Source: a virus
Taxonomy: Duplodnaviria; Caudoviricetes
Reading direction: 5' to 3' (one strand)
DNA: 64,000 nucleotides
IMG/VR virus record: IMGVR_UViG_3300032038_000027
Span: 51,744 to 115,743 of that record
Below are positions 45,204-64,000 of this stretch, piece after piece. How positions within the stretch are numbered: position 1 is the first letter of the stretch; the number at the start of each line of letters is the position of its first letter. The notes under the pieces were generated by a model. The model was not told the DNA's origin. It was given only the letters and a program-made list of their open reading frames with translations, and searched no databases. Both the position numbers and the translations under genes were made by a program.

Positions 45204-45235
45204 TTTGATTGTTAAATTATCGTTCATAAATTTAT

Positions 45236-45445: not shown

Positions 45446-45447
45446 TT

Positions 45448-46125: not shown

Positions 46126-46150
46126 TTTAGAATCTCACTTTCCTTGTTAT

Positions 46151-46657: not shown

Positions 46658-46994
46658 CGGGTTCGTTCAGCAGCTTGCCGTGCAGATCATAAATATCAAG
46701 ATGATCTCTTGATAATAAATCCTCGAATCCTTCATATTTTTCGCTCTTATATGTCGGAACTGGCGTTACATCCGTCCACGATTTGTTCTTTTTAACAATA
46801 ACAATATAATTCATATACACATATACATAATAATCATTATTGTTTAAGACGACCTCTGTTAAGATAAAGTTCTCAGTATCGGGCGCAAGATCAGCACGAA
46901 TCAAACTTTCATTAGCGAATCTTTCATCAACCAAAAGTTCGCACACCTTGTTATAAATACTATTAATGTCATAATCTACTTGAATATTTACCAT
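46626..46994 (-). CDS. Hypothetical protein
   Basis: 122-aa ORF. Confidence 0.5.
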   Translation of the reverse strand: MVNIQVDYDINSIYNKVCELLVDERFANESLIRADLAPDTENFILTEVVLNNNDYYVYVYMNYIVIVKKNKSWTDVTPVPTYKSEKYEGFEDLLSRDHLDIYDLHGKLLNEPDGGNDESQQQ

Positions 46995-47009
46995 TTCAAT
47001 AAATCCACC

Positions 47010-47201
47010 TCAATTCTTTAATGCGGTTAAATAGCTATCATTGGCGAAAAATTCCATATCAGAATTTTCAAATTGAATTACTGCATGATGTTTTGAATAT
47101 CTAATAAAGACACATTTAGATACCAATCCATTTCGATAGGGAGATGAATATAGGCATTGATCTCCGCTTTTAAATTTATTAGGATAATGGATTCTCGACA
47201 T
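47010..47201 (-). CDS. Hypothetical protein
   Basis: 63 aa; similar to the C-terminus of 42082-42471. Confidence 0.55.
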   Translation of the reverse strand: MSRIHYPNKFKSGDQCLYSSPYRNGLVSKCVFIRYSKHHAVIQFENSDMEFFANDSYLTALKN

Positions 47202-47344
47202 TAACCTTTCCTCTTTTTATTCACGATGATAGCAATAATTCCAACAATAAGTTGCAAGATATTCACGACGAGAATTGCGAATGAAAAGTTGCCCAAATAT
47301 GCTTCATTCGCAACATTTCGCAAAAATTGCAAAAATTCCTCCAT
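47201..47344 (-). CDS. Small single-TM protein (47 aa, absent from the ORF track)
   Basis: MEEFLQFLRNVANEAYLGNFSFAILVVNILQLIVGIIAIIVNKKRKG; fills the gap exactly, with a GGGTGA SD. Confidence 0.65.
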   Translation of the reverse strand: MEEFLQFLRNVANEAYLGNFSFAILVVNILQLIVGIIAIIVNKKRKG

Positions 47345-47545
47345 TTAATCACCCTGCTTTACCTGTCGTATTCTGACTATTTCAATTTCTTTAGGTTTAT
47401 ATCTCTTTTTTAATTTCCTTAAAACCTTGCGTCTTGCTCCGGCTTCAGTAAATGCGCGGACGTAAACAGTCCTTTTCTGCGGACGATAAACACCGATATA
47501 ATACAGCATGGTTACAACGGCTCTTACTTTCCATTTCTTAATCAT
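47345..47545 (-). CDS. Basic hypothetical protein
   Basis: 66-aa ORF. Confidence 0.5.
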   Translation of the reverse strand: MIKKWKVRAVVTMLYYIGVYRPQKRTVYVRAFTEAGARRKVLRKLKKRYKPKEIEIVRIRQVKQGD

Positions 47546-47548
47546 AGA

Positions 47549-47827
47549 TCATTCCCATGCAAATAATTGTCCGCATCTTGGACAACGATTATCCCTTGTT
47601 AAACAATTAGCAGCTCGCCCATCTCTAATTCTTCTGCCACAAGCAGGGCAATATCTTTTTAAAGCACTTCCATTCGGAGCAGTAGGAGTATTTTTCGCAA
47701 TCACTTCATCAATGGCTTGAACCAAATTATATGGTAAAGGACATAAAGATTCTTTGGATTTTGATTCTAAGATAACTTTCACATCTTTTAAGCAATCAAG
47801 AAGTTCATAGTCATTCATATATATCAC
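47549..47827 (-). CDS. Zn-ribbon protein
   Basis: CPACG...CPRCGQ. Confidence 0.6.
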   Translation of the reverse strand: MIYMNDYELLDCLKDVKVILESKSKESLCPLPYNLVQAIDEVIAKNTPTAPNGSALKRYCPACGRRIRDGRAANCLTRDNRCPRCGQLFAWE

Positions 47828-48237
47828 TCCTTTTTAAAGGATTTAATTGATACGAATAATCGTTTAATACGTTTTTTAGTCTTTTTAATAAACTGGCGAT
47901 AATTCCTATTCCTATATTCTTTGCGACTATATGTGATGAATCCTTTCTGAGATAACTCAAAATATCTATCAAATGTAGATTTCTTCATCCAACGAAATCT
48001 TTTGGAATTATCTTCAGAAACACATCCAAACTCCCACGCAACATAACGCATAATCCACGCAAAGAATCTTTCAAAAATATTAAGATAAACCCTCATATCA
48101 ACAATATATGTACCTTTAGGAATAAGTTCATCGCACTCAGGTATAAATACCTGTCTTGTGCAAATATATGTGTCATAACAAAACGGACTTTTAATCACAT
48201 AATAAGTTTCGCCACTTGTACTATTTGGATTTATCAT
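47824..48237 (-). CDS. Hypothetical protein
   Basis: 137-aa ORF. Confidence 0.5.
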   Translation of the reverse strand: MINPNSTSGETYYVIKSPFCYDTYICTRQVFIPECDELIPKGTYIVDMRVYLNIFERFFAWIMRYVAWEFGCVSEDNSKRFRWMKKSTFDRYFELSQKGFITYSRKEYRNRNYRQFIKKTKKRIKRLFVSIKSFKKE

Positions 48238-48248
48238 TTTGATCTCCT

Positions 48249-49058
48249 TTAATCGGATTTCTTTAATACTGTATTTGCTGCTTTAGATTTCTTTAATATT
48301 GTATTTGCTGCTTCAGATATTCTTCTTAATGCTATATCATCATATTCAAGATTGTTCTCGATGCCGATGAAATAACGATTTGTATTCACGCACGCTACGC
48401 CAGTTGAACCGCTGCCCATACAATTATCAAGAACTACGTCGCCCGGATTCGTATATGTTTTAATCAAATACTCTAATAAGGCAACTGGCTTTTGAGTTGG
48501 ATGAAATCTACCTCCATCTCTCGGATAACTTAATATACTTAGCGGATTTCGCGCACCGTCCAAAGATTCAGTATAAGCTACTCCCCTATTGCCGTAATTA
48601 TCAGACAATCTACCGTTTTTAGTCTTTTTATACGGCGAGGAATACCATAACTGCTTATTATATATAGGTTTCTTTTTGTAAAAAATCGCAATTTCTTCAT
48701 GGGATTTAAGTGGCTTTACATTGGCGTTTAGAAAATCTGAGCCGCGCTGCTTATCCCAAATCAGATTGTATCGCCATAGCTTAGTATTAGATAACATGAG
48801 ATTTGCCATGAATAAACCATCACAAAATAAAGCGATACAACCGTGTTCTTTAATAATTCTTGTGTAATGCTCCCATAATTTATCGAGCGGAATAACTATG
48901 TCCCATTTATTATGGGTTGTACCATAAGGCAGATCACATAAAATCATGTCTATGGATTCATCTGGTATTGTTTGCATTACATTTAAACAGTCACCAAAAT
49001 GTAATTCATAGTTATACGGGGGGGGTGTTGAAGCTGAATTGTTAAATATTTTTCTCAC
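48249..49058 (-). CDS. N6-adenine/N4-cytosine DNA methyltransferase (beta class), in-frame C8 tract
   Basis: CDLPY, HPTQKP, DNCMGSGSTG; poly-C at 49018-49025. Confidence 0.92.
   Translation of the reverse strand: MRKIFNNSASTPPPYNYELHFGDCLNVMQTIPDESIDMILCDLPYGTTHNKWDIVIPLDKLWEHYTRIIKEHGCIALFCDGLFMANLMLSNTKLWRYNLIWDKQRGSDFLNANVKPLKSHEEIAIFYKKKPIYNKQLWYSSPYKKTKNGRLSDNYGNRGVAYTESLDGARNPLSILSYPRDGGRFHPTQKPVALLEYLIKTYTNPGDVVLDNCMGSGSTGVACVNTNRYFIGIENNLEYDDIALRRISEAANTILKKSKAANTVLKKSD
48256..48313. repeat. 30-bp-period tandem duplication at the MTase 3' end
   Basis: GATTTCTTTAATA(C/T)TGTATTTGCTGCTT twice; encodes AANT(I/V)LKKS twice. Confidence 0.85.
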
Positions 49059-49750
49059 CTTGCTCTTGATTTGTTGCTAAAATACGCTCTTTGGCGATTT
49101 CAAAAGAGTGATCGTCTAATTCAATACCGAAGAATTTTCTGCCAGTTTCCAATGCGGCGATTCCCGTAGTTCCCGAACCCATACAAGGGTCAAAGATCAA
49201 ATCACCAACATTACTATTGTCTAATAGTAATTCTTTACATAAATCGAGATTCTTTTGAGTAGGATGAACCTTATTCCTGCCACACGGATATTCAAAAACT
49301 GTATTCTTACAATTAGCATTAAAAACTGCACCACGTTTTTTAAACCATATAGCGTTTTCAATGCCGGATAAGTAAATGTATTTGCCGTTCATTGGAGAAG
49401 GATTAGTTTTCTTCCAAATTAATTGGCGCACCGTACCTTTATGTTTATCTTGTAAATCTTGAAAGAAATTTTTAATTTCGCTTAATTGATGCTGACCACA
49501 AAATATAATAATTGTGCCAGAAGTAACACGATTGATTTCTTTAAGAAAATCTATTAGACAAAAAGTAGTAATATCTGCATATTCTTTGTTGAGATTTCTC
49601 AAACCGTTATCAGCACGATTGATCTCACCATACGGAATATCTGTTAATGTAACATTTACTGAATCAGATTCCATTTGTTGCAAAACTGTCATGCAATCTG
49701 CATTTAATAATTTTGCGGGGGGGGGTTCTACTGGCTATTGAATTAATCAT
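49042..49750 (-). CDS. Beta-class DNA methyltransferase, frameshifted at a C9 tract (phase-variable, predicted OFF)
   Basis: TDIPY, HPTQK, DPCMGSGTTG. The SD-preceded ATG at 49750 joins the main frame only with C8 or C11 at 49717-49725. Confidence 0.85.
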
Positions 49751-49781
49751 AATCATTCCTATCTTTCAATACAGTAATTAG

Positions 49782-50120
49782 TTATATAAGTTCAATGCCA
49801 CATTTGGGGCAAAATTTCGCTGCCACTAAATCGAATTGTCCCTCAACCTTTGGAGCGGTTGATGTGAATAATAAGCAATTACACTTCGGGCAGAACATCT
49901 TGATAGTTTCGCCATATTTGGAAATTCGCTTTACTGCAATATTATCATTCAATACAGCGGTGTTGATCTTCCTGCGAATATTAAGCATATTGGTGTGGGT
50001 TGTATTGGTTATACGGGTATTGCATTTGATACAATACACACCTGCACGTTTGCCTTCCATTTTTGCATAAACATCTTGACTACCGCAGGATGGACAAGTA
50101 TAAACTATCTCTTTAGCCAT
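49782..50120 (-). CDS. Double Zn-ribbon protein
   Basis: Four CxxC motifs. Confidence 0.6.
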   Translation of the reverse strand: MAKEIVYTCPSCGSQDVYAKMEGKRAGVYCIKCNTRITNTTHTNMLNIRRKINTAVLNDNIAVKRISKYGETIKMFCPKCNCLLFTSTAPKVEGQFDLVAAKFCPKCGIELI

Positions 50121-51576
50121 TACGACACACCATCTTATTGTAACGATCAGTAAGATAGTTCATAATTTCATTGTGCGAATTTCTCAGATTCTCTTGCATA
50201 ATCTGATCTACAACATCGTCTAAAGCTGCGCCGATTTCTTTACCTTTATAACCAATAGACATTACATCATTACCGTCAACGGTTAAATATCTCATATCGG
50301 CAAATCCACTCTCGCGGAAATCCTCTTGAATACAATGAAAAACATTCTCTGTAATATAAGCATATGCTAACAGCTTTTTGTTTTCATCATTTGCTAAAAC
50401 AGCTTTCAAATAATCGAAAACCATATCCGTCATAACACAGTTGTGAGTTTTACGATAAACATCGCGGCAGAAATATCTAACGAATTTCATATAATCAAGG
50501 GATTTAATTTCGCCAAGTGTCGTAATGCGCGGAATACCGCTCTTTTGCGGAGATTCAATGTATTCAAAATAATACTTCGCAATAGCATCTGAATACGGCT
50601 TATTTTGCCACCCATTAAATTCATCAATCATATTTTGGGCGGCACTATGAATCGTAGCAACCTCTTTAATGAGCCTGTTAGAATAACGAAGTTTTTTCAT
50701 GACAGATTCTACATTATAATCATGAAAAACCACCGCTAATCTTAATGTTAGATCATTATATGTATGCTCCAAATTCTCATAAATACCACGAGGGTACACC
50801 CAAAGTTGTCCTATAATATCTTGAATAACCACCATGAATAAACGAAAATATTTAATCATAGTTTCACGATCAAGCCGATTATAATGAACTATATCTGAAA
50901 TTGATGAAAAGTATGTATCTTTAAGCATACGAGAAAATTCTGATCTAATTCTCTCAACTGAAACACATGACACGGCTTTAATAAGATTAGTGTTTAATGC
51001 TTTATATGTTTCTTCCTCAATCGCAAAGCTATATGTCAAAGCGAAACGTAGCGCACGAAGTCGTCGCAAAGCATCTTCATTAAATCTGTCTACAGGATTA
51101 CCAACGCAACGAATAATGCCATTTTTGAGATCGTTTTCGCCACCAAATGGGTCAATTAATCCGCTTGTATAGTTATATGCCATAGCGTTGATCGTAAAAT
51201 CTCTGCGTGACAAATCCTCTTGAATATCAGAAACAAATTCTACATTATTTGGGTGGCGTGAATCATCATACTGACCATCTTTGCGGAAAGTTGTTACTTC
51301 AAATGCTCCGTCTGGTTCGCCATCATTCTGAAGAACTACGGTTATTGTGCCATGCTGAATACCTGTCGGAACAATAGGACAATCATAAAATACTTCAGCG
51401 ACTTGTTCCGGCAAAGCAGATGTAGTAATATCCCAATCTTTTGGAGCTTTGCACATCAACGAATCACGAACGCAGCCACCAACAACATATGCTTCGAATC
51501 CCGCTTTTTCGAGCTTATCAATAATATATTCAACTCTAATAGGCAATTTAATCTCAATCATTATATTCACCGCCAA
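50113..51576 (-). CDS. cca: Class II tRNA nucleotidyltransferase (CCA-adding-like)
   Basis: VGGCVRD, DWDITT, EVTTFR, DLSRRDFTINAMA, RFNEDALR. Confidence 0.88.
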   Translation of the reverse strand: MAVNIMIEIKLPIRVEYIIDKLEKAGFEAYVVGGCVRDSLMCKAPKDWDITTSALPEQVAEVFYDCPIVPTGIQHGTITVVLQNDGEPDGAFEVTTFRKDGQYDDSRHPNNVEFVSDIQEDLSRRDFTINAMAYNYTSGLIDPFGGENDLKNGIIRCVGNPVDRFNEDALRRLRALRFALTYSFAIEEETYKALNTNLIKAVSCVSVERIRSEFSRMLKDTYFSSISDIVHYNRLDRETMIKYFRLFMVVIQDIIGQLWVYPRGIYENLEHTYNDLTLRLAVVFHDYNVESVMKKLRYSNRLIKEVATIHSAAQNMIDEFNGWQNKPYSDAIAKYYFEYIESPQKSGIPRITTLGEIKSLDYMKFVRYFCRDVYRKTHNCVMTDMVFDYLKAVLANDENKKLLAYAYITENVFHCIQEDFRESGFADMRYLTVDGNDVMSIGYKGKEIGAALDDVVDQIMQENLRNSHNEIMNYLTDRYNKMVCRNG

Positions 51577-52498
51577 AAGGATATTTCACAGGATTCTTAA
51601 TAGGCTCTAAAAATTTCGCAAGCATATGATTATATCTAAATACAAGATCGGAATCTGTCGGCGTTTGACCGTTCATGTAGCGCAAAATCTGCGGCAAAAT
51701 GTCGCCATCTACACACTTGATTTGAGTTGGCTCAAATGCAAAATATTTAGCCCACCCATAATCACCAAGTTTGCTTAAACAGAATACTTCCATTCTAAAC
51801 AAAGCACCAATATCACAATCCAGAACATCTTTTAATTCTGTAAGAGTAACATCACCGACGTTTTCAATGATAATTTCATCGTTGCTTACGCTGTAAATTT
51901 TAATATCGGGCATTTTTTCGGAAATCAAAAACGCTAAATGAGTAGTTAAATATCTTTCGTATTGTATCTGCTTTTTAGGGTTACAAGCACCCATAATCAC
52001 TTGACGAATATACTTGCTATGAATGATGTGCTGAAAATTAGTAAACATACCAATGTATTGTTCCCATGTTTCAGCGTTTTTGAAAATTTGCGAATTAAAA
52101 TGCCGTAATGCGGAAAAATTCGCCTTTTTCATATCAATCGAAATAAAGTGCTTATTATCATTTTCATCAATATAAAGATTTCTATTAGGAAAATTACCAA
52201 TGGGCGCAATAGCGCCGACATCAACATTATTAAAAATGTTATAATATTCATTCTCTTTAATCATGTTGATAATGCTATCTTTAACGGAATTATAGAACTC
52301 AAAATATGATTGCTCGTCGGGATAGTGTTCTAACTCTTTCGCAAATAGAACGAATTTTTCAACGCACCCATAATAATCATCGAGTAATTCCAACCTTTGC
52401 GAAAAATACGGTTCATCAAAAACTGTGATCGGCACGTTCGCATCTTTACAGAATCGCTTTTTTAATGCAACTGAGCTTAAAACCTGTTCATATGTCAT
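51554..52498 (-). CDS. Hypothetical protein with polymerase-palm-like acidic motifs
   Basis: FISIDMKKANF and SNDEIII. Confidence 0.45.
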   Translation of the reverse strand: MTYEQVLSSVALKKRFCKDANVPITVFDEPYFSQRLELLDDYYGCVEKFVLFAKELEHYPDEQSYFEFYNSVKDSIINMIKENEYYNIFNNVDVGAIAPIGNFPNRNLYIDENDNKHFISIDMKKANFSALRHFNSQIFKNAETWEQYIGMFTNFQHIIHSKYIRQVIMGACNPKKQIQYERYLTTHLAFLISEKMPDIKIYSVSNDEIIIENVGDVTLTELKDVLDCDIGALFRMEVFCLSKLGDYGWAKYFAFEPTQIKCVDGDILPQILRYMNGQTPTDSDLVFRYNHMLAKFLEPIKNPVKYPFGGEYND

Positions 52499-53547
52499 TA
52501 TCTCAACACCAATCTATTCATGGAATATTTTCTCACACCAGTTTGCCAATTAATTTCAATTAGCAATTCATCAATCTTTTTGCGATCTGGCGCTTCCGGC
52601 AAGGAAGTTGTCTTAGAAAGTTTATTTAGCTTATTTTCATATTCATCTACAATATCATAAAACTCTGGCAGTACCTGACGATCATCATCAAGATATTTAC
52701 CGTTGCGAATATCCATCAAGAAATCATGCTCTTTTTCACGATATGTAATAATTTCGCCGTTTTCAAGAATATCAAAAGCCATTAAATACAAGCGTACAAG
52801 GTGCATCATGTGCTTACCTAATTTATTATGCTCAATAGCTTTTTCATTTCTCTTACCCATTTTCTTATATCCGCTGAGAATAGCTTGCATATCAGAGAAC
52901 ATAGATTTATGATCTCTCAAAGGATAATGATCTAAATGAATATCACAGAAGATTTCACTATCATAGCCTTCCCTATCAGTTTCATCAACATAAAGTTCTA
53001 TTGCACCGGGCGGGACATTCTCGTATCTTTCGCTAAACATAACAGAAGCGTGTTTGATGCTATTAAGAATGTTTTGCTCTTGATGTGTCTGATCTGTTAA
53101 TCTCGCAGATTTATTTTCAAGCCTACGAAGCTGCGAATTTGCATACCCTCCAAAAGAATGAATTGCTTTTTTAGATAAGAACAGATGTTTATTTTGTAAT
53201 AACAAATCACCTGCATATGTTGTATGTAAATAGTGTTCGGGCTTCAATCCCAGAATTTCTATCGTATTGGGATTACAATCATAAAGCAGCTTAAATATTT
53301 TATTAACTGAATAGATTGTCGTATCGGTTTCAACATCAACAACCTGTTCAAAATCTTTACCGCTTAAAATATTTTCAGCAGAATTGGCGGCGATTCCCCG
53401 AATGTCTAAATCGGAGTTTTCATTATTAGTGCCATATGCGTGGCTGCCGCCAAGTCCAAGAAGAATAATCTTATCATTATTGATTTCCGGGTTATCTCTT
53501 AAAGAATCATATTCTTTTTTCTTAATTGTTTCTCTATAATCATTCAT
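52498..53547 (-). CDS. Pol-beta-superfamily nucleotidyltransferase (RlaP/YcgL-like)
   Basis: GGSHAYGTN..SDLDIRG, NPNTIEIL, KHMMHLVRL. Confidence 0.85.
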   Translation of the reverse strand: MNDYRETIKKKEYDSLRDNPEINNDKIILLGLGGSHAYGTNNENSDLDIRGIAANSAENILSGKDFEQVVDVETDTTIYSVNKIFKLLYDCNPNTIEILGLKPEHYLHTTYAGDLLLQNKHLFLSKKAIHSFGGYANSQLRRLENKSARLTDQTHQEQNILNSIKHASVMFSERYENVPPGAIELYVDETDREGYDSEIFCDIHLDHYPLRDHKSMFSDMQAILSGYKKMGKRNEKAIEHNKLGKHMMHLVRLYLMAFDILENGEIITYREKEHDFLMDIRNGKYLDDDRQVLPEFYDIVDEYENKLNKLSKTTSLPEAPDRKKIDELLIEINWQTGVRKYSMNRLVLR

Positions 53548-53564
53548 AACTTTCAGTACAGCAA

Positions 53565-54377
53565 TTAACGCTTTGAATAAATCTCAAACAAGTCATTATC
53601 TAAATATTGCTTTAGATACTGATCTGCGTTTGAGATCAAATCATCTTTCTCAAATAATTCTTCAGCAATACCGCCACCAATCGCCGCTATAGTATCTGTG
53701 TCTACTTTGAATGACAAAACATTATGGATAAACTCAGAATAACTATCAGCTTCATATAAACAGCGAATTGCGAAAGGAACGCTACCTTGACAAGTTTCAT
53801 CCCAATGATAATATTTACGCATTTCTGACAAAGAATTTTCTGCGCTGAAAGCATAATTGCATTTCGGATAACGCCAATTTACAAATGATAGAATATCGTC
53901 CTTTGTGGCGTTATCATATTTTACCATCCAAACGCAAGTCGCAATCGTAATTGCACCCTTGATTCCCTCGTCGTGATTATGTGTAACTTCTGCCGATCTA
54001 TGTGCAAAAAGAACAACATCGGCGAGCTTGTTATAATAATCACCTATGTAAGACACACGCATAGCTGCGCCGTTGCCATAACTGTTATAAGGCTCATGAT
54101 TATCACTCTCTAACCAGTCCATGAACATTGAACCATAACCGCCATATTTGTACTTAATTCCGTACTCTAAATACGCAGATTTGAAGTCTGGGTCGTCTGG
54201 ATTTCGCAAAATTGCGGCTTTTGTGGCTAAAGATAGCACAGAATCGTCTGTAAAATGCGTTTTTTCTCCAAATAAAATAGGTGTTTTATCACGGTTATAA
54301 TAATCGTCTGCAAACTCATTTTTGAACTCATATGCAGAACCAATGATATCTCCTAAGATCGCTCCCTTTAGAGCCAT
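53565..54377 (-). CDS. ADP-ribosylglycohydrolase (DraG/ARH family)
   Basis: GDIIG, FTDD, SYGNGAAMR, TH, DTDTIAAI. Confidence 0.92.
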   Translation of the reverse strand: MALKGAILGDIIGSAYEFKNEFADDYYNRDKTPILFGEKTHFTDDSVLSLATKAAILRNPDDPDFKSAYLEYGIKYKYGGYGSMFMDWLESDNHEPYNSYGNGAAMRVSYIGDYYNKLADVVLFAHRSAEVTHNHDEGIKGAITIATCVWMVKYDNATKDDILSFVNWRYPKCNYAFSAENSLSEMRKYYHWDETCQGSVPFAIRCLYEADSYSEFIHNVLSFKVDTDTIAAIGGGIAEELFEKDDLISNADQYLKQYLDNDLFEIYSKR

Positions 54378-54405
54378 ATAATATTCCCTCCGGCTTACCG
54401 ATCAG

Positions 54406-54729
54406 TTAGCTAACCACCACACCATCAACGCACCAGTATTGAAGTTCACCATCATTATTAACAGTTGCGTTGCTGAAAATTACAGGAATACCCGCAACGC
54501 CTTGAATAATATTTTTGAAATCATTATACCCCATCAGGATATTAGATGGTGTTTTTACTTCTATGTATACCCCATCGGGAGTTTTATATATAAATTCGCG
54601 CAGATAAGGAAGTTTATCAAGCAACTTATCGGTGAAATTCTCAATAAATTTATCTAATGCATCTGTATTAAAAACCATCTCAATAAATTCTCTACCTGCA
54701 TCCTGCTTTCCCACAACTAAATCTCTCAT
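54406..54729 (-). CDS. Hypothetical protein, first gene after the leftward promoter
   Basis: A GGAGG SD supports a start near 54729 rather than the track start. Confidence 0.5.
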   Translation of the reverse strand: MRDLVVGKQDAGREFIEMVFNTDALDKFIENFTDKLLDKLPYLREFIYKTPDGVYIEVKTPSNILMGYNDFKNIIQGVAGIPVIFSNATVNNDGELQYWCVDGVVVS

Positions 54730-54780
54730 GATAAACATCCTCCATTTTCTTTTATTTCGAATGAATTTTCGAATAAATTG

Positions 54781-54809
54781 TTGACTTTTCAAGAAATTTC
54801 GACTATAAT
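54781..54809 (+). promoter_or_regulatory. Rightward promoter for repressor/ImmA genes
   Basis: TTGACT-17 bp-TATAAT. Confidence 0.75.
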
Positions 54810-54847
54810 TTTATTGAAAATAAGTCCGTTTTTCTCCAACGGTTCTT

Positions 54848-54876
54848 ATTTTAGCAGAATATTTTCTACTTGTCAA
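54848..54876 (-). promoter_or_regulatory. Leftward promoter (face-to-face with the rightward one)
   Basis: TTGACA-17 bp-TAAAAT with extended TG. Confidence 0.75.
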
Positions 54877-54917
54877 GTCCTACAGAAGAAAATATCACTA
54901 AATTGAGGTGCGAAATT

Positions 54918-55271
54918 ATGGAAAACATTCTTTACGCTCGTATTAAACAGCTATGTGACGAACGAGGAATAAGCATAAAGAAACTTGAATCTATGCTTGG
55001 TTTTGGTGCATCTTCAATTCAAAAATGGAAAGATTCTACATCTCCATCTATAGATAAAGTAAAACGTGTTGCGACGTTTTTCAATGTTTCTATTGATTAT
55101 CTAACCGGTAGGACAGACATAAGAGAAATAGATTATTTTAAAGAACCTAATGTCGTCACATTCCAACGTGCGCGAGAAAAGATGGATTCAGATACCGAAG
55201 AGCGCATGATGGCTACTTTGCGTGCGGCATTTGGTAATGATTACTTTCCGCAGGAGGATAATAACGAATAA
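54918..55271 (+). CDS. XRE-family HTH repressor (ImmR/CI-like)
   Basis: RIKQLCDERGISIKKLE...SPSIDKV...VSIDYLTG; GAGGTG SD before ATG at 54918. Confidence 0.9.
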   Translation: MENILYARIKQLCDERGISIKKLESMLGFGASSIQKWKDSTSPSIDKVKRVATFFNVSIDYLTGRTDIREIDYFKEPNVVTFQRAREKMDSDTEERMMATLRAAFGNDYFPQEDNNE

Positions 55272-55895
55272 ATGATAAGATATGCCTTTGTGAATAATCA
55301 AGTATTACGAATTTATAGAAGTTTACCTTATATTGAATTTCCGATCAACGTAAAGAATATTATTAGTTTAATCCCAAATTGTAGATATATGTCGTATGAA
55401 CAATTTGCAAAATTAAGTGATTGTTCGGTTGATGATGTTATCAAATTTTGTAAAAGTAGATTTGGCTGTACAAAATATGATGCTAAAAGTGATAGATATA
55501 TAATTCTGTGTAATGAGCAAACAAACGATAATAATAATATAGGTCGTCAAGCATGGACGTTAGCTCATGAAATAGGTCATATTGTGTGCAATCATCATAA
55601 GATCATTCTCTACTCTAAACCAAATAGTGAAAAAATAGTGAAATCTATTACGAAAGATTTTGAAAGTGAAGCGGATTATTTCACCGCTATGTTGCTTTCC
55701 CCATTTCCTATCTTTGGTGCATTTAATATCCATTCTGTAATAGATATTAAGAACACATTTGGATTGTCAATGCAAGCCGCACGAAATCGTTTTGCTCATT
55801 ATCAACGATGGAAATTAAACCATCGTAAAACATCATGGGAACATGATATGCTAAATACTATCACATTCAATTATTTAAAAGCAAGTTCATTATAA
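55272..55895 (+). CDS. ImmA/IrrE-family metallopeptidase
   Basis: WTLAHEIGH, ESEADYF; adjacent to the XRE repressor. Confidence 0.9.
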   Translation: MIRYAFVNNQVLRIYRSLPYIEFPINVKNIISLIPNCRYMSYEQFAKLSDCSVDDVIKFCKSRFGCTKYDAKSDRYIILCNEQTNDNNNIGRQAWTLAHEIGHIVCNHHKIILYSKPNSEKIVKSITKDFESEADYFTAMLLSPFPIFGAFNIHSVIDIKNTFGLSMQAARNRFAHYQRWKLNHRKTSWEHDMLNTITFNYLKASSL

Positions 55896-55898
55896 GTC

Positions 55899-55940
55899 GC
55901 ATGGTAATGTATATTAAGATATACACTACCATGCTTTTTT
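55899..55940 (+). terminator. Intrinsic terminator between immA-like gene and groEL
   Basis: GCATGGTA-a-TGTATAT-taag-ATATACA-c-TACCATGC followed by T6. Confidence 0.85.
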
Positions 55941-55946
55941 ATTTAA

Positions 55947-57566
55947 TTACTGCGCGGTAGGAATTTGTACAGGCTCTTTTTCATCTGCCACAAGAGTTTC
56001 AGTTGTCAGAATCATACCTGCAACAGACATAGCATTTTCAAGTGCCTTAATAGTCACCTTTGCAGGGTCGATAATGCCACTTTCGAGCATATCAACCATT
56101 TCGCCGCTCGTAACATCGAATCCCATATTGGGGTTGTTTCTTTCAACATTATCGACTTTATATCTAAGAGCGCAACCGGATGGCGATAATCCTGCGTTAT
56201 TGACAATGTTGTTAAAAGGCTCTGAAATTGCAAAAGAAACTGCATCAAAATATTTCTGATCTTCTGATTCAGAATACTTAGCAGCAAGCGGAACAATAGC
56301 GTTCATAAGAGCAATACCGCCGCCCGGAACAATGCCAAACTCGATAGCTGCTCTTGTCGCTGACAGTGCATCTTCAAGACGAAGTTTCTTATCCTTCAAC
56401 TCGATCTCTGTATTTGCACCAACGCGAATAACTGCAACACCATTTGTCATCTTTGCAAGACGTTCCTTGAACTGCTTGCGATCATATTCATTAGTCGCTG
56501 AGTCACAAGCGCAACGAATAGAATTTGCTCTTTCCTCGATATTCTTTGTATCGCCATGACCGCCGATAATAGTAGTGCTTTCCTTTTCAACCTTAACCTT
56601 GTCGGCACTACCAAGATCATCAATAGTGACATCTTTAATTGTATATCCTAACTTAGATGTGAAACACTTAGCGCCAGTTACAACAGCAATATCCTCTAAC
56701 CATGCTTCTCTGTTTTCGCCAAACTTAGGAGGCTTTACGCACACAACATTGATAATGCCTTTCATCTTATTAGTAATAAGAGTACCCGCAACCTCATTAC
56801 TAATTTCATCAGAAATAATTACTAAACTTCTGCCACGCTTTACCGTGCTTTCAAGTAGCGGAAGGATATCAGGAACAGAATTGATTCGAATATCAGAAAC
56901 GAGAATAAGAGGATTATTGTATTCCGCAACCATTTTGTCGGGGTCTGTTACCATATAAGGTGAAATATAGCCCTTGTCAAACTGAATACCCTTTACGATC
57001 TCATGCTTAGTTTCGTTTGTCTGAGAATCATCAACAGTAATCACCAGATCGTTACCAAGTTCACTAATAATATTCGCAATAATTTCGCCAAACTCAGGGT
57101 CACGAGAAGAAATTGTGGCTACCTTTTCAATATCATCACTACCACGCACAGGAATAGCATATGCTCTAATGATAGAGATTACATCTTCAACAACCTTCTC
57201 CATATTTCTCTTAACGATAACGGGATTCTCGCCAGATGCAACTAATTTCATTCCCTGCTCAACAAGAGCTTGTGCAAGCACAATAGCGGTAGTTGTGCCA
57301 TCGCCGGAATCCGTATTTGTTTGTGAAGAAATTTCACTTACGAGCTTTGCACCCATATTTTCAAATTCATCCGGCAAACTAATCTCTTTGGCAATAGTTA
57401 CGCCATCATTAGTGATTAGCGGAAATGTATAAGAGCGATCAAGGGCGACAAATCTTCCCTTTGCGCCAAGTGTTGACTTTACGCAATTTGCAACAATATT
57501 GATTCCCTTAATAAGCGCATTTTTAGCTTCAGCACCCATAAGAATTTTCTTAGCCATTGTCATCAT
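55947..57566 (-). CDS. groEL: Chaperonin GroEL
   Basis: ITNDGVTIAKEI, GDGTTT, FDKGYISPY, GIVPGGG, GIIDPAKV. Confidence 0.97.
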   Translation of the reverse strand: MMTMAKKILMGAEAKNALIKGINIVANCVKSTLGAKGRFVALDRSYTFPLITNDGVTIAKEISLPDEFENMGAKLVSEISSQTNTDSGDGTTTAIVLAQALVEQGMKLVASGENPVIVKRNMEKVVEDVISIIRAYAIPVRGSDDIEKVATISSRDPEFGEIIANIISELGNDLVITVDDSQTNETKHEIVKGIQFDKGYISPYMVTDPDKMVAEYNNPLILVSDIRINSVPDILPLLESTVKRGRSLVIISDEISNEVAGTLITNKMKGIINVVCVKPPKFGENREAWLEDIAVVTGAKCFTSKLGYTIKDVTIDDLGSADKVKVEKESTTIIGGHGDTKNIEERANSIRCACDSATNEYDRKQFKERLAKMTNGVAVIRVGANTEIELKDKKLRLEDALSATRAAIEFGIVPGGGIALMNAIVPLAAKYSESEDQKYFDAVSFAISEPFNNIVNNAGLSPSGCALRYKVDNVERNNPNMGFDVTSGEMVDMLESGIIDPAKVTIKALENAMSVAGMILTTETLVADEKEPVQIPTAQ

Positions 57567-57840
57567 CCTCCGTATTCAGCTTTAAAATAATATCCTTATT
57601 CTTTGCAATATAATACTCTTGTCCATCATACTCAATTCTTAGAGTTTCACGAAAATCAAAAAGCACAATATCGCCAATTTCAAGATTATGATGTTTCTGC
57701 TTATTAACAACTTTCGCAATACAGCGTGTGTCCTTATTGTTAGTAAGAATCAAACTATTTGAGCCATCATGTTCAATTTCACAAGGTAAAAGCAGTAGAT
57801 AATTATTAAACATTTCGCCCTGTTCAATCTTATTATTCAT
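57550..57840 (-). CDS. groES: Divergent co-chaperonin GroES-like
   Basis: 96 aa directly upstream of groEL; IGDIVLF and YDGQEYYI...DII. Confidence 0.65.
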   Translation of the reverse strand: MNNKIEQGEMFNNYLLLLPCEIEHDGSNSLILTNNKDTRCIAKVVNKQKHHNLEIGDIVLFDFRETLRIEYDGQEYYIAKNKDIILKLNTEDDDNG

Positions 57841-57860
57841 CTTTCAATCCCTCTCTTTTA

Positions 57861-58295
57861 TTATTCTGCATCAGTCACAAAACGATAAGGCTTCTTTTCT
57901 ACAATAGGTAAAGCCTTAGTAATGTAATATACAGCGATGTTTTCAACAGCACCTTCAATTTGCTGCTCATTGATTCTATGATCGTACATAATCACATTAG
58001 ATTCAATTTGCATTGACTTTGCTGTAGGCTTTGCAATCGTAATTGTGCCGCCATTTGTGAATCGAATTACATAATAGAGATTACTATTTTTAGCTGTATA
58101 TTCTTGAATTTCATCAATTAACGAAGTAGAAATCTTATTGTAATATTCACTTAATTCATTACAAAGAGCGATTGCCTTTTCACGATCTGCCATAAAGAAC
58201 AGAATTTGATAGTTATGATACATCTGAAGTCTTTTAAGGATTCTATCAATCAAAAAAGTCTGATTATTAATCATTTGTTTCACCTCTCTTCCCAC
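57861..58295 (-). CDS. Hypothetical protein
   Basis: IRFTNGGTITI motif. Confidence 0.5.
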   Translation of the reverse strand: MGREVKQMINNQTFLIDRILKRLQMYHNYQILFFMADREKAIALCNELSEYYNKISTSLIDEIQEYTAKNSNLYYVIRFTNGGTITIAKPTAKSMQIESNVIMYDHRINEQQIEGAVENIAVYYITKALPIVEKKPYRFVTDAE

Positions 58296-59356
58296 GGAAA
58301 ATTATTTGTTCCAAAATGTCCAAATTTAGCTGTTTCATAGAATTTAACATGACCATCATTAAGATGTAAGTCCTTAATCATTCTTTCTGGGGTACATTCT
58401 TCAAGATATTGATATTTATTGATACCAAGAATTGCATTATTTCTGTCACTAATTGCAATATTTTTATCGCTTTGAATATCAATAGATACAGGCTCGGCAA
58501 TACCAATAGCATAAGATAGTTGAACTTGCACCCAATTCAAATCTTCATTACGGTTTAAAACATCAATGGCGATCTGTCGTGCCTTATAAGCTGCGGAACG
58601 ATCAACCTTAGTCGCATCTTTACCGGAGAAAGCACCGCCACCAATCGGCGCAAATGAATGATAATTGTCTACACATAGCTTTCTGCCAGTTAATCCCGCA
58701 TCGCCATCAAAACCACCAATCAGAAATTTGCCAGTAGGATTGATATGAAAATTCTCAATAGAGATATAAAATTGATGACATAAACTACGGCAAAAATCTA
58801 TTAGAATCTGATCTGTTTCTTTGCGTTCAACTTCTGTATTTTGATATGAGATAATAAAATCTTTAATGTAGCGCAATTTGTTATTTTCATCATAACAACC
58901 GACAATCTGTGCTTTACCATCTGGTAAAAATCTTGAATCTGATCGTCGCAAGGAATCATAATACATTGAAAGTATCTGAAGAATATTCATAGCAAGTGGA
59001 ATATTATTTTGCGTATCTCTACAAGCAAATCCGAACATCATTCCTTGATCTCCTGCACCGCCGATATCCACACCTTGTGCAATATCGGGAGATTGTTTAC
59101 CAATGTTATTGATTACAGCATATTCTCTTGTATAACCCACATCTTGTAAGACTTTTCTTACAACTTCTTGGATATTAACATTAGCGGTTGATGTAACTTC
59201 GCCAGTTACGAAAATCACACCTTTGCCGCCAACTACTTCGATTCCGCAGCGACTATTGCGATCTTTCGCCAAATAAGCGTCAAGAATAGCATCGCTAATC
59301 TGATCGCAAACTTTATCCGGGTGTCCTCTAAAAACTATCTCATTACTATATAGCAT
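58280..59356 (-). CDS. metK: S-adenosylmethionine synthetase
   Basis: GHPDKVCDQISD, GAGDQG, PDGKAQ, GLTGRK, GGGAFSGKD.TKVDRS. Confidence 0.97.
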   Translation of the reverse strand: MLYSNEIVFRGHPDKVCDQISDAILDAYLAKDRNSRCGIEVVGGKGVIFVTGEVTSTANVNIQEVVRKVLQDVGYTREYAVINNIGKQSPDIAQGVDIGGAGDQGMMFGFACRDTQNNIPLAMNILQILSMYYDSLRRSDSRFLPDGKAQIVGCYDENNKLRYIKDFIISYQNTEVERKETDQILIDFCRSLCHQFYISIENFHINPTGKFLIGGFDGDAGLTGRKLCVDNYHSFAPIGGGAFSGKDATKVDRSAAYKARQIAIDVLNRNEDLNWVQVQLSYAIGIAEPVSIDIQSDKNIAISDRNNAILGINKYQYLEECTPERMIKDLHLNDGHVKFYETAKFGHFGTNNFPWEER

Positions 59357-60275
59357 TTGGTTTTATATCCTTTTCAATATATAATTTGTATTTTCGTATT
59401 ACATCTTCAAAAAATCTATTCCATTCGCTATCTTTAAGATCATATATGCCTTTTGACTTTAATAAATCCGAGCGAAGAAAACTCCTTCTCAAAGAATCAA
59501 CCATATGGGATTTACATATAGGATATACTTTTGCAAAATTTCTGAACACTATCCATGCTTCGTTCCGCAAAACTACATCTCCCCAAGCATCATCATAAAT
59601 AAATTTCTTGTGTTTCTCTTTAATTTCAGGGAAATATTTACTTATGATAACGCTTAACGGTGCGCCAATATCTTCAACCGGAGGTCTAAAAGATTGCGAG
59701 AAGAAATCACGGTGTTTAAGCCATAGATCGTTATCTTTAATAAAACATTGAAATTTCGCACGATCACCAAGCCAACTAACAGAAAACGATGGTTTTATAC
59801 CTTTTAATTCAAATGGCTTTTCAAGTTTTGGTTCACCATAAATACGATATGAATAAATTTCACAGATCATAGGCTCTAAAAAGTATTTTTCATATACTTC
59901 GCGCAAATTATCGGACACAGTTACAATATCAAATGTAACAGGAAAATTTAACTTACCATACGGCACGACTTGATAATCTACTCTATCGAGATATTCACAA
60001 TCATCCATACTATCACGGTAAAATCTAACGATTATTGAAAAATCGCTTGTTTCACATTGTCGCCATTCTCGCCAACCGTCTTTTCGTTTCTCGACCTTAA
60101 TAGGATAGGATTTGTCGCGCATTAAGTTTATATATGTCAGATAAGTCTTATCGGTATAAGGCTCTATTTTTATGATCTTTTCGGACGGGAAATATTTCGC
60201 AGCTTCTTCTTTAGTATCAGCATATATCTTTGGCTGATAATCTCTACCATCAAGGGTTAATATCCAACGGTTCAT
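59346..60275 (-). CDS. Hypothetical protein
   Basis: Long ORF; likely start MNRW at 60275 after an AGGAG SD. Confidence 0.55.
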   Translation of the reverse strand: MNRWILTLDGRDYQPKIYADTKEEAAKYFPSEKIIKIEPYTDKTYLTYINLMRDKSYPIKVEKRKDGWREWRQCETSDFSIIVRFYRDSMDDCEYLDRVDYQVVPYGKLNFPVTFDIVTVSDNLREVYEKYFLEPMICEIYSYRIYGEPKLEKPFELKGIKPSFSVSWLGDRAKFQCFIKDNDLWLKHRDFFSQSFRPPVEDIGAPLSVIISKYFPEIKEKHKKFIYDDAWGDVVLRNEAWIVFRNFAKVYPICKSHMVDSLRRSFLRSDLLKSKGIYDLKDSEWNRFFEDVIRKYKLYIEKDIKPNAI

Positions 60276-60633
60276 TTTCGCTCCTATTATAATATGGCAC
60301 AAGACAAGGAGTATACGTTTTACAATCAACATGATTAGAATGTAAAAGCGCATTAATTCGCAACCCGGTTGCAACCCAATCCTTATTCAAAACTAATGTG
60401 ATCTTGCTCTGATTGCTGAAAAATATATGTCCTTGTTCATGTCTATGAACAAATTTCACATTAGGGATTTGGCGACAACATTCGCGCAATTCTTTAATAC
60501 TTGCAAATACCACCAATGCTTGAAAGCGAGGATAAGTGCAACAATAAAATATAATCTCACCCATTGTATCGAAAGAATACTTTTTATGAATCGGATTAAG
60601 ATATGTATTACCCAAAGAAGCCTCCGAACGCAA
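60250..60633 (-). CDS. Hypothetical protein
   Basis: IFFSNQSKITL...GLRIN; start uncertain. Confidence 0.45.
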   Translation of the reverse strand: MRSEASLGNTYLNPIHKKYSFDTMGEIIFYCCTYPRFQALVVFASIKELRECCRQIPNVKFVHRHEQGHIFFSNQSKITLVLNKDWVATGLRINALLHSNHVDCKTYTPCLVPYYNRSENEPLDINP

Positions 60634-60766
60634 GCAGCGCTACCTGTATGCCAACACTAATCAACGCTCCCCAAAAATTATTCTTCGTTTCTTTACCGTG
60701 TAGATATGCGTTTGCACATAAACTTAATCCCATAAGAACAATCCAAATAATTTGGCACACACCCAT
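60608..60766 (-). CDS. Small two-TM protein (52 aa, absent from the ORF track)
   Basis: MGVCQIIWIVLMGLSLCANAYLHGKETKNNFWGALISVGIQVALLAFGGFFG after a GAGGTGA SD. Confidence 0.7.
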   Translation of the reverse strand: MGVCQIIWIVLMGLSLCANAYLHGKETKNNFWGALISVGIQVALLAFGGFFG

Positions 60767-60767
60767 G

Positions 60768-61166
60768 TTAATCACCTCTGCTTTCAAACATCACTTGATG
60801 ATGCTCCTTAATTTGTGGAAAATCGGACTTTAACATCGCTTTTAATTCGGCAACTAATCCCTTTAAATATGCCTTTGTTAAGCCGCTAAAAACATATTCA
60901 CATATATATTTCTTATCCGCAGAACCGCCAAACATGATACACAGATCAAGTTTATTACCCCAATCAATAACTCCATCTATGACTTTTTTGTGTTCATTAT
61001 ATATTTTAGCGGTTGCCTCATTAAGTGCTTCGGTCAATAATTCTGATTTATCGAGATCATTATAATATACTGTATCGTTTGCCTCATTAAGTGCTTCTGA
61101 TTTATCGGGAACATTATTTGAATCGACAATATCCGATTTAAGTATAAACATTCCTTTAACCATCAT
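60768..61166 (-). CDS. Hypothetical protein with internal duplication
   Basis: DKSE and EALNEA are each repeated. Confidence 0.5.
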   Translation of the reverse strand: MMVKGMFILKSDIVDSNNVPDKSEALNEANDTVYYNDLDKSELLTEALNEATAKIYNEHKKVIDGVIDWGNKLDLCIMFGGSADKKYICEYVFSGLTKAYLKGLVAELKAMLKSDFPQIKEHHQVMFESRGD

Positions 61167-62100
61167 TTCTTATCAGACCTTTCAAAATATGTTTGATAAC
61201 TTCAATACACCAACCATCGCCGCACATATTATAAATATGACTATCTGCAAAATCCATTTTATACCACTCAGGTATCGTTTGTAATTTACGATATTCATGC
61301 GGTGTGAGTTTGCGACATCTGCCGTGATCGTATACTTTCTTTTGCAAATTCCCGCCACGACAAGCTGTCAATGTTGGTGATTTATAATTAGGATTGTTGA
61401 CACGTTTTAAGATATCGTGTCCATTAATATGTAATATAGCGCAAACTTTTTTGCCATCATAATAATCATAGCTTTGCGTATAATAATATTTTTCATCTAC
61501 ATCTGAATCCATAATATCGCGCAAAACTAATGAACAATTATCCGGCAACTTATTTATAGGAATGTTTGTCCAATAATTTCTCGCCCGATCTTGTGCGGAA
61601 AATAAATTTGCGTTTATTAAAATGGGTTCAACTCCTAATATTTTGCTCATTTCATGAATATCATCTTTGCGATTACTATCCACGTTTTCTACGAGAAAAT
61701 AAACCATAGAATTATTATTTATTTGAATCCATTTAAGAATCTTAGCGCATGAGTAGAATAAACTTGATGAACCTTTTAATCCATTATTATATTCTGATCT
61801 ACCCATTGTAACTTTAGATAATGATCGACACGGACTGCCGAACATCACCAAATCAATTCTTGGTAAACTTTGTAACATATTATCAGTAATTTTCGTTACA
61901 TCTCCAAGCTGTATGGTGTTCGGAAAATTATCTTGTGTGCATTTTATCGCAACTTTATCAATTTCACTCGCATAATAATTATTGATCTTAAACCCTAATT
62001 CGGTTAATGCAATTTGACCGCAACTCATTCCATCACACAAACTAAGCACATTTAATCCTTCATCGCCAAATAAAGTGTTGTTTTTATCTTTTAATTCTAT
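61156..62100 (-). CDS. C5-cytosine DNA methyltransferase (switch B, predicted ON)
   Basis: VLSLCDG, FGSPC, LVENV, QDRAR, GDGW. Frame extends to ATA at 62100 after a GGTGA SD; GTG at 62049 is an alternative start. Confidence 0.9.
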   Translation of the reverse strand: MELKDKNNTLFGDEGLNVLSLCDGMSCGQIALTELGFKINNYYASEIDKVAIKCTQDNFPNTIQLGDVTKITDNMLQSLPRIDLVMFGSPCRSLSKVTMGRSEYNNGLKGSSSLFYSCAKILKWIQINNNSMVYFLVENVDSNRKDDIHEMSKILGVEPILINANLFSAQDRARNYWTNIPINKLPDNCSLVLRDIMDSDVDEKYYYTQSYDYYDGKKVCAILHINGHDILKRVNNPNYKSPTLTACRGGNLQKKVYDHGRCRKLTPHEYRKLQTIPEWYKMDFADSHIYNMCGDGWCIEVIKHILKGLIRNDG

Positions 62101-62220
62101 TTTAAGTCACCAAACTTTCGAATGTTAATTTCATATTATATGATGGTTAATTGTTGATAATTCAATATAACTCCGCAATATAAGGGCTTTCTTAACAAAA
62201 TTCGCACAATAAAAACAACA
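62076..62220. promoter_or_regulatory. Putative invertible start-codon switch B
   Basis: 12-bp perfect IR at 62076-62087/62209-62220. The current orientation supplies SD+ATA; the flipped one gives an in-frame TAA (62193-62195). Confidence 0.7.
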
Positions 62221-62225
62221 TTTGC

Positions 62226-63752
62226 TTAATGAAACATATTTTTCATTAAATGCGCAATTACCTCTACAGTCCAACCGTTGCCTAAACATTTATAAGCCTG
62301 TGAATCACTAATCACGCTAAAATCATACCATTCCGGCACAGTCTGTAATCTCTTACATTCACTCACCGTTAATTTTCTGATTATGTAAAAACCATCTGCT
62401 AATTTAATAGGATAGGTTTTACCTTTAATTTCAATCATACCGTTCTCTACGGTATGAACAACATAAGTTTTACCATCTGCTGACGATACAGCTTTAATTG
62501 GTTTATCGTTTTCAAACTTAACTGGAATAGCATAAAGTCCAGTATTAGAACCAATCCCACCACTATTGGATTGTTGCGTTACTGATTTACCATTTATACT
62601 ATAAATTCTGTTGCCTTGCCCACCGTTTCCTATTTCACCGATTTTATGAGATGTAAGTAATTTATCATGTTCAATATTTTCATTTACTGGTTCAATTACA
62701 CCTTCATAACCGCGACCATGAATAATATTTTCTTCAAGATTTCTTCCATTACCGATTTTATAATATGTAGCTCTTAAACAACTTGATTTATCTTTACATC
62801 TCGTAGTAACCGGCTCAGCAACCATCCTGCGTGCAGCGACAGATGTTAAAGCAGCAGACTTATTATCTGTTTTAGCTTCATATCTGCGGTCATACGTTCC
62901 ATCAGATTGTTTCTTTCTGCCGTATACTTGTTCTTGTACAGCTACAGGTTCGGCAACACCACTTGCTCCGTAGGTAGAAGTATATTTGCAAATATTCGCA
63001 ATACTTGTTTGCTGATATTGTGCTTTAATTGTTTGAGATTTGCCATCCTTAGTAGTATTCACAGGTTCAAATGTCATTTGACCTTGATTTTTCTTAAAAT
63101 ATTCTCGCGTAGTAGTTCTCCCGATACTGCTAATAATTGCGCGAGATTTATCACGATTAACTACGCCATCAAGAACATCTCGTAATAATATTCCCCTATC
63201 TTCCGGTTGCGGAATATCAGCTTTTCTATATGTGCCATCATCATTTCTGATTCCGCACCAATAATATCTATTGCGATTTTGTGCCGATACTAAAGCGGAA
63301 TTTATTAAAATAGGTTCAAATCCGAATGTATTTGAAATACTTTCGTAAATAGCTTTTGCCATTGACTTATTGTTTTCATAAATAAAGTATTTAGGTTTAG
63401 CTTCTTTCAATGCTCTAACATATTGACTGAATAATTCCCAACCTAAACCACTTGCTTCAGTTTCGCGGCGATCATTCTTTTGAGCGATTGACCAATATGT
63501 GCAAGGGCTGCCGCCAATTAAGAAATCAATATTTTCATATTGAGTGAAATCCGCGTCAAATACATCACCATTTTGCTCGATCTCAGGGAAATTATGCTGT
63601 GTAACAGCGATCGCATACTTGTCGATCTCATAAGCGGAATATTTTGCAACGTTAATGCCGCTGCTCATGAACGCCAACATTCCGCAAGCCATGCCGTCAA
63701 ATAGGCTCAGAACTGAAACTCCGTCATTTGCGGATAAATCAGTGTTTTTATT
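62226..63752 (-). CDS. C5-cytosine DNA methyltransferase with extended multi-segment variable region (switch C, predicted OFF)
   Basis: VLSLFDGM, GGSPC, IYENN, QNRNR, LGNGW. The frame is closed by TAA at 63753-63755 with no SD-supported start before motif I. Confidence 0.9.
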   Translation of the reverse strand, partial: NKNTDLSANDGVSVLSLFDGMACGMLAFMSSGINVAKYSAYEIDKYAIAVTQHNFPEIEQNGDVFDADFTQYENIDFLIGGSPCTYWSIAQKNDRRETEASGLGWELFSQYVRALKEAKPKYFIYENNKSMAKAIYESISNTFGFEPILINSALVSAQNRNRYYWCGIRNDDGTYRKADIPQPEDRGILLRDVLDGVVNRDKSRAIISSIGRTTTREYFKKNQGQMTFEPVNTTKDGKSQTIKAQYQQTSIANICKYTSTYGASGVAEPVAVQEQVYGRKKQSDGTYDRRYEAKTDNKSAALTSVAARRMVAEPVTTRCKDKSSCLRATYYKIGNGRNLEENIIHGRGYEGVIEPVNENIEHDKLLTSHKIGEIGNGGQGNRIYSINGKSVTQQSNSGGIGSNTGLYAIPVKFENDKPIKAVSSADGKTYVVHTVENGMIEIKGKTYPIKLADGFYIIRKLTVSECKRLQTVPEWYDFSVISDSQAYKCLGNGWTVEVIAHLMKNMFH

Positions 63753-63886
63753 TTAAATTCCGGTACTTTAAATGCCCAATAATTGAGAATTTATAATTCG
63801 CTGTTTATCTTAGATATTTTAACAACGACATAAAAACATATAGAAAGGTGGGTGTTTCACAATAGATTTAGCCAATAAAAACACTG
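63740..63886. promoter_or_regulatory. Putative invertible start-codon switch C
   Basis: 13-bp perfect IR at 63740-63752/63874-63886; GAAAGGTGGGTG-7nt-ATA GAT TTA GCC on the + strand becomes in frame after inversion. Confidence 0.78.
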
Positions 63887-63892
63887 TTTACT

Positions 63893-64000
63893 TGTATGCG
63901 GGTGAGGATTCGCACCTCACATGGCACACTTTCGCTTAGTTATCGAGTTTCTTCCACCCTACTCTCACTTCGCCACAGGAAATTGTGTACCTTCCCATCA
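63893..64000 (-). ncRNA. Possible tRNA-like RNA 3' end (truncated by window edge)
   Basis: T-arm-like GTGAGG-TGCGAAT-CCTCAC followed by CCGCATAC; no full cloverleaf visible. Confidence 0.3.

Follow-up and report, generated by a model that had tools for sequence, protein, structure and literature searches.

How could a DNA methyltransferase gene that has kept all of its motifs be left without a place to begin translation? The question is raised by a gene near the end of a single linear IMG/VR rumen phage record of 115,743 bases, of which bases 51744–115743 were the main subject of analysis. This stretch, hereafter the window, makes up the final 64 kb of the 115.7 kb record and ends at the last base of the contig; positions are given in window coordinates unless a record coordinate is shown. 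The record is 34% GC with an estimated completeness of 74% (CheckV), and the public sequencing runs that share sequence with the window are almost all bovine gut metagenomes. Nearly all of the long open reading frames (ORFs) between ~12 kb and 63.7 kb are on the minus strand, and the last 8 kb code for a GroEL-like chaperonin, a SAM synthetase, and two C5 cytosine methyltransferases, referred to here as B and C. The GroEL-family chaperonin and the complete SAM synthetase (55947–59356) are located immediately downstream, in transcription order, of both methyltransferases. Across the record, a Shine-Dalgarno (SD)-like core is found upstream of 55% of the long ORFs, against a background of 10%, with a spacing peak at 6–8 nt, and the host therefore uses SD-led initiation.

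The two contig ends have features of their own. At the contig start (G000:C1:1–230, outside the window) there is a GC-rich tandem repeat with a 77-nt unit in ~2.5 copies, which is unlike the AT-rich remainder; this end may be chimeric or artefactual. At the opposite end (63890–64000) is a minus-strand ORF that is cut by the contig end and has its stop near 63940. This ORF is followed by a hairpin (GTGAGG-7 nt-CCTCAC, ~63900–63920) that is GC-rich, lacks a T-run, and is positioned just outside the distal repeat arm of cassette C described below. There are no Rfam matches in 63500–64000.

Methyltransferase C is a clear member of the C5 family, with matches above the curated cut-offs to PF00145 (1.1e-39; 137 bits vs a cut-off of 22) and TIGR00675 (122 bits vs a cut-off of 100.65), and with motifs I, IV (PC), VI, IX, and X in place. 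It aligns to M.HhaI residues 11–196, 216–267, and 272–317, which spans motifs I–VIII, the TRD, and motifs IX–X, and it retains the PC, ENN, TRD, and GNG motifs. The closest homologs are P0002 and P0003, the first of which is 94% identical; only distant methyltransferase matches are found in the cultured-phage collection.

The unusual feature of the gene is its 5′ end. The minus-strand frame reads ...*NKNTDLSANDGVSVLSLFDGMACGM, and there is no ATG, GTG, or TTG in it ahead of an ATG that is located within motif I. The stretch GVSVLSLFDGMACG aligns with M.HhaI residues 11–24 (GLRFIDLFAGLGGF), such that the ATG (63692–63690) corresponds to L21, past strand beta-1 and past F18 and G20. By comparison, most of the 120 homologs listed have a Met 2–25 residues ahead of VLSLFDG. 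The initial annotation had proposed that a start at 63692 lies inside motif I and would lose the conserved strand, and that the frame is closed by a TAA at 63753–63755; the M.HhaI alignment bears out the first point, and the second is confirmed in the sequence. Judged from its reading frame, gene C appears to have no usable start in the present orientation. Recoding of TGA was considered for this gene and rejected, as it opens no upstream start.

A candidate start is present nearby, but on the other strand. The 5′ end of the ORF is overlapped by one arm of an inverted repeat bounding a short segment, which is the architecture of a partial intergenic inverton; the positions of its parts, together with those of two sister cassettes, are shown in Table 1. 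The two arms match at 15 of 16 positions (63737–63752/63874–63889), including a perfect stretch of 13 nt. At the far end of the segment, on the opposite strand to the gene, is what gene C lacks, namely a putative ribosome-binding site and start position together with the four initial codons: an SD-like GAAAGGTGGGTG, 7 nt, and then ATA GAT TTA GCC leading into the repeat. These elements, which belong in front of gene C, point the wrong way, so the gene is predicted to be off at present. In the present orientation the SD and ATA open just a 25-codon plus-strand ORF.

Table 1. Features of cassette C, the methyltransferase C gene, and sister cassettes A and B (window coordinates).
Feature	Position	Strand	Description
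C5 cytosine DNA methyltransferase C	62226–63752	−	508-codon open frame following TAA; first canonical start ATG 63692
Gene-proximal inverted-repeat arm C	63737–63752		Perfect core 63740–63752; encodes methyltransferase N-K-N-T
Invertible interior C, 121 nt	63753–63873		Predicted OFF orientation now; in-frame TAA 63753–63755 abuts proximal arm
Promoter-like TTGAGA-17-TATCTT	63783–63811	+	Inside segment; 9/12 matches; not above chance
SD-like and putative start module	63843–63873	+	SD-like GAAAGGTGGGTG 63843–63854, 7 nt, putative initiator ATA 63862–63864, GAT TTA GCC
Distal inverted-repeat arm C	63874–63889		Perfect core 63874–63886, reads AATAAAAACACTG
Cassette B	62076–62220		12-nt repeats TGTTGTTTTTAT, 121-nt spacer; ON, before C5 methyltransferase B (61156–62100, −)
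Cassette A	45058–45203		14-nt repeats TAGATTTTTTATTT, 118-nt spacer; OFF, before PAPS-reductase-family gene (44129–45016, −)

When positions 63753–63873 are flipped in silico, the frame reads *KGGCFTIDLANKNTDLSANDGVSVLSLFDGM... and is open as a single frame. This frame (IDLANKNTDLSANDGVSVLSLFDGM) is colinear, without gaps, with that of the paralogous methyltransferase B. A BLASTP comparison of methyltransferases C and B (36% identity) opens at residue 1 of C and residue 5 of B, and thus exactly four residues come from each cassette, IELK in B and IDLA in flipped C. The initial annotation had described a start-less methyltransferase rescued by inversion, in which the plus-strand GAAAGGTGGGTG-7 nt-ATA GAT TTA GCC leads into the repeat and would become colinear with the start of B. 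The module is seen as described, the in-silico flip and the BLASTP comparison agree with the colinearity, and the rescue is supported by the anatomy, the in-frame flip, the colinearity with B, and the flipped forms of A and B in a related phage (see below). We consider it likely that switch C is a partial intergenic inverton, a small cassette whose inversion gates translation of methyltransferase C and which is now OFF.

Cassette C is not alone. A repeat scan and a cassette profile identify three such cassettes in the 115.7 kb record, and no fourth copy is found there with a profile of the three, noting that this profile is self-trained and its E-values are not independent. All three are positioned at the 5′ ends of DNA-modification genes; the PAPS-reductase-family gene of cassette A is followed by an AAA ATPase and then an N6/N4 methyltransferase. 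The cassettes have a common register, with GAAAG-N3-GGTG, 7–8 nt, AT(G/A) GA, nine more bases, and then the repeat (ATAAAAA), and the repeat core TTTTTAT is present in each. The spacers of B and C are identical in length. The SD-start module faces the gene in B and faces away from it in A and C; the hidden start of cassette A is a normal ATG, and an ATA is found in the same register in B and C. Outside of their 3′ 50 nt the cassettes are only ~48–54% alike, and the blastn match between C and B is not significant on its own (E 0.16). The likeness among the three, as judged from these alignments, is in architecture and short motifs and not in long homology. None of the 5′ regions at 48 loci encoding homologs of methyltransferase C (31 viral, 17 genomic) has a repeat-flanked cassette like C, and the cassette therefore looks confined to the present phage lineage. 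The more distant homologs at these loci have ordinary starts (but compare L015 and L017, below). Programmed frameshifting from small upstream ORFs was also considered for B and C, and rejected, as the leader frames differ between the two and there is no slippery site.

Evidence for inversion in natural DNA comes from contigs of four public runs, compared with window positions 44001–64000; these derive from relatives of the phage, sharing at most 0.31 of sampled words. In run X19, a 36.6 kb contig of a related phage is colinear with the window over most of 44001–64000 and is mostly 85–97% alike. Both sister cassettes are flipped in this contig. For cassette B, there is a joint at 62087/62208 between opposite strands with 12 shared letters, which are exactly the repeat; the segment 60322–62087 is on one strand and 62076–62208 on the other, the latter with 3 differences in 133 positions. 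For cassette A, the joint is at 45071/45189, also between opposite strands, and the 14 shared letters are again exactly the repeat. With A and B each flipped at their repeats, the cassette family therefore does invert, and the difference in orientation with breakpoints within the repeats bears the signature of conservative site-specific recombination. Several short-sided joints that touch cassette arms (52655 to 62081, 62604 to 45050) are probably low-complexity matches.

Both orientations are thus represented for A and B (X19 vs the record), and C is seen only in its present orientation. The X19 contig does not run on into a C-like gene, and no opposite-strand joint for C is present among the joints listed, which are all but seven, where the cover over 62.7–64 kb is of low-depth contigs only. 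Exact scans of the viral contig collection gave no matches for the gene-side flank of C, the cassette interior, or a degenerate cassette signature, and the metagenome collections gave none for the degenerate signature or for a wobble-degenerate N-terminal coding pattern. This failure to find a flipped C allele is what would be expected if C, or the family as a whole, had once flipped and C is now locked OFF, with methyltransferase C as a young pseudogene; the one mismatch in the 16-nt repeat of C fits this as well. We regard such a frozen inversion as unlikely. The 13-nt core is perfect, and the gene is otherwise intact, with its 508-codon frame and all motifs kept, as expected of a reversible OFF state rather than decay. 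Moreover, the sister cassettes differ in orientation between close relatives with repeats (12 and 14 nt) that are shorter.

Less probable again is that the present orientation already yields the enzyme, from either a CTG at the L of VLSL or the ATG at 63692, and that the repeat is irrelevant to expression. There is a GGAG 8 nt ahead of the CTG codon within the ORF, and about one in ten of the 120 homologs listed, the two closest among them, have internal Mets as their annotated starts, like methyltransferase C; in addition, the first codon of the relatives L015 and L017 appears to be an ATA or ATT that immediately follows a stop codon. However, strand beta-1 would be lost in part or in full with a start at either the CTG or the ATG, and the F and G of motif I would also be lost with the latter. 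Expression from the present orientation would also leave as an unexplained coincidence the SD-start module on the opposite strand, which is in frame once flipped and matches that of B.

A chance inverted repeat or an assembly artefact is very improbable. The contig end is only 114 nt away from the site, and chance alone should give about two inverted repeats of 13 nt per 115 kb at this composition (our own estimate), with four seen (within 40–400 nt) in the record outside of one AT-rich repeat region. However, the 121-nt spacer shared with B, the common TTTTTAT core and SD/start register, the continuous frame after the flip, and the A and B inversions in independent data all argue against it, and as the repeats are shorter than assembler k-mers, an assembler would not create the inversion unless both forms exist. 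What is beyond chance for C is the combination of the 121-nt spacer of B, the TTTTTAT core, the early-codon position in a paralog, and the in-frame flip.

An invertible cassette could act on transcription or on translation. The initial annotation suggested that a weak TTGAGA-17-TATCTT within the segment might add promoter control; the hexamers are present at 63783–63811, but such sites are at chance level, with 10 in 61900–64000 compared to 9.4 ± 3.4 in shuffled sequences. No terminator-like site is found in cassette C in either orientation. With a co-directional gene array, promoter hexamers at chance level, and no terminator, control is therefore most simply translational.

The ATA codon is the putative initiator of both B and C, judging from its position: it stands where A has ATG and where homologs have either Met or the next residue, and the 7-nt spacing between it and the SD-like sequence of C is typical for the phage (peak 6–8 nt). 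ATA is a poor initiator, and as it is found in two cassettes that have diverged, low methyltransferase output may be under selection. We note that the two viral homologs L015 and L017 (~3000–3015) also lack a canonical start and have ATA ATT AAT AAA AAA straight after a stop codon, with AAGGAGA upstream; non-canonical ATA or ATT starts may recur in the enzyme family to which methyltransferase C belongs.

The record encodes two tyrosine recombinases, one at 10051–11205 (beside a tRNA-Cys gene) and one at G000:C1:30373–30924, and neither they nor any other recombinase gene is next to cassette C. There is no match to the serine recombinase family PF00239 in the 115.7 kb record, which is 74% complete by estimate. 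Each of the six cassette arms consists, from outside to inside, of wAAA, five locus-specific bases (TAGAT, TGTTG, or CAGTG), and TTTTTAT(T). This layout seems to resemble a tyrosine-recombinase core, with two inverted half-sites around a crossover region. The crossover region of such a core must match between recombining partners, and the locus-specific centers may prevent recombination between the three switches.

We propose that strand exchange within the 13–16-nt repeats is carried out by a site-specific recombinase, for which the two phage tyrosine recombinases are the most likely candidates, and that each arm would function as a core site with an invariant inner half-site (TTTTTAT), a locus-specific 5-nt center, and a degenerate outer half-site (wAAA). 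In the OFF state the TAA directly adjoins the repeat and neither an SD nor a start precedes motif I, such that only a truncated and presumably dead product would be made. In the ON state, GAAAGGTGGGTG-7 nt-ATA and three further codons would be joined in frame to the repeat-encoded N-K-N-T, and flipped C would yield a full-length enzyme from a weak, non-canonical ATA start. Together, cassettes A, B, and C and two nearby poly-G tracts would give a phage population with mixed DNA-modification states.

Several features of the neighboring modification genes are also of note. Methyltransferase B has an AAGGA-6 nt-GTG (GTG 62049) just ahead of LSLCDG (62040–62070), which may serve as a start independent of the cassette, in which case B would be only partly switchable; methyltransferase C has no canonical codon at the equivalent position. 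In a 94 kb IMG/VR relative (L037:3960–4030), a homolog of methyltransferase B with 77% identity has a normal GGAGG-ATG start, but this is one base out of frame with the body of the enzyme across a G7 run. The offset reflects either an assembly error or a switch at the same gene that works by slippage of the homopolymer. In the 115.7 kb, 34% GC record, G/C homopolymers of at least 7 are limited to a G8 (49018–49025) and a G9 (49717–49725), which are at the 5′ ends of two adjacent minus-strand ORFs. In the X19 relative, a joint between 49010 and 49736 spans both runs, and the intervening gene is absent.

In bacteria, DNA methylation is known to be phase-variable, and in phages, tail fibres are known to be subject to programmed inversion. 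A broader reading for this phage, which we offer tentatively and hold as possible but not probable, is of a combinatorial phase-variable epigenome, in which the start-codon invertons A, B, and C and the two poly-G tracts would switch five DNA-modification genes independently. One lysate could then contain as many as 32 modification states, a hedge against restriction or methylation-dependent restriction in different hosts, with the 5-nt cores keeping the switches independent and one recombinase serving them all. The five genes stand next to the phage SAM synthetase. More generally, by flipping the translation starts of its orphan methyltransferases, along with that of a PAPS-reductase-like enzyme, a phage would gain a form of bet-hedging on its side of the restriction-modification arms race. 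The case also exposes a blind spot in gene calling, as genes of this kind appear 'start-less' or N-terminally truncated in databases, and the cassette would represent a compact, portable translational switch of ~150 bp.

In the full-text literature we found no phage methyltransferase switched by inversion of its start; the searches returned phase-variable hsdS and Mod systems and phage tail-fibre inversions. Several known systems share parts of the design. The phase-variable methyltransferases and phasevarions (Mod with simple repeats, hsdS with inversions; PMC7672463) likewise show stochastic ON/OFF or specificity switching of methylation, but they are bacterial and depend on repeat slippage or hsdS shuffling, whereas the phage cassette is predicted to flip the translation start of an orphan C5 methyltransferase. 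The Mu G segment with Gin and the P1 C segment with Cin are, like the present case, phage genomes with their own programmed inversion and a mixed phage population. These use serine invertases and an enhancer to swap tail-fibre C-termini and change host range; in contrast, no serine recombinase is found in the present record and the targets are DNA-modification enzymes.

The E. coli fimS switch (FimB/FimE) is an ON/OFF inversion by tyrosine recombinases with very short (9-bp) repeats, which is reminiscent of the short arms here. However, fimS carries a promoter and is wholly upstream of fimA, and cassette C has no promoter above chance and is predicted to control translation initiation. The RecV switches of Clostridioides difficile (cwpV, flgB, and other Cdi sites; PMC5903667, PMC5386303) are small tyrosine-recombinase switches with a closer resemblance: a short segment with short inverted repeats is positioned between upstream transcription and a coding sequence, in a low-GC host that uses SD sequences, and several switches are scattered in one genome without an adjacent recombinase gene. 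They differ in being on a bacterial chromosome and in acting within the 5′ UTR, through a terminator or an RNA-level effect. In the phage, one arm of C is inside the ORF, the flipped piece would carry the SD, the start, and four codons, and the switch is ahead of DNA-modification genes.

Placement of one of the two repeats within a coding sequence, with its partner lying beyond it, is shared with partial intergenic invertons and gene-altering programmed inversions (Milman et al. 2023, PMC9881135; Chanin et al., PMC10028968), and DNA methyltransferase and restriction-modification genes are enriched among the targets of gene-altering inversions (PMC9881135, PMC10028968). Those described are mostly long shufflon-type domain swaps (hsdS, PglX, tail fibres) with repeats of at least 22 bp (PMC9881135, PMC10028968), unlike the 147-bp ON/OFF start-codon cassette proposed here, which has 13–16-nt repeats and no alternative coding module. 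By these comparisons, the closest matches in proposed mechanism are the C. difficile RecV-type switches (PMC5903667), the partial intergenic invertons (PMC9881135, PMC10028968), and fimS. The phage system differs from these in four respects: it is in a phage, a repeat is within the ORF, the SD, start, and first codons are what is flipped with no alternative module, and it is one of a set of three.
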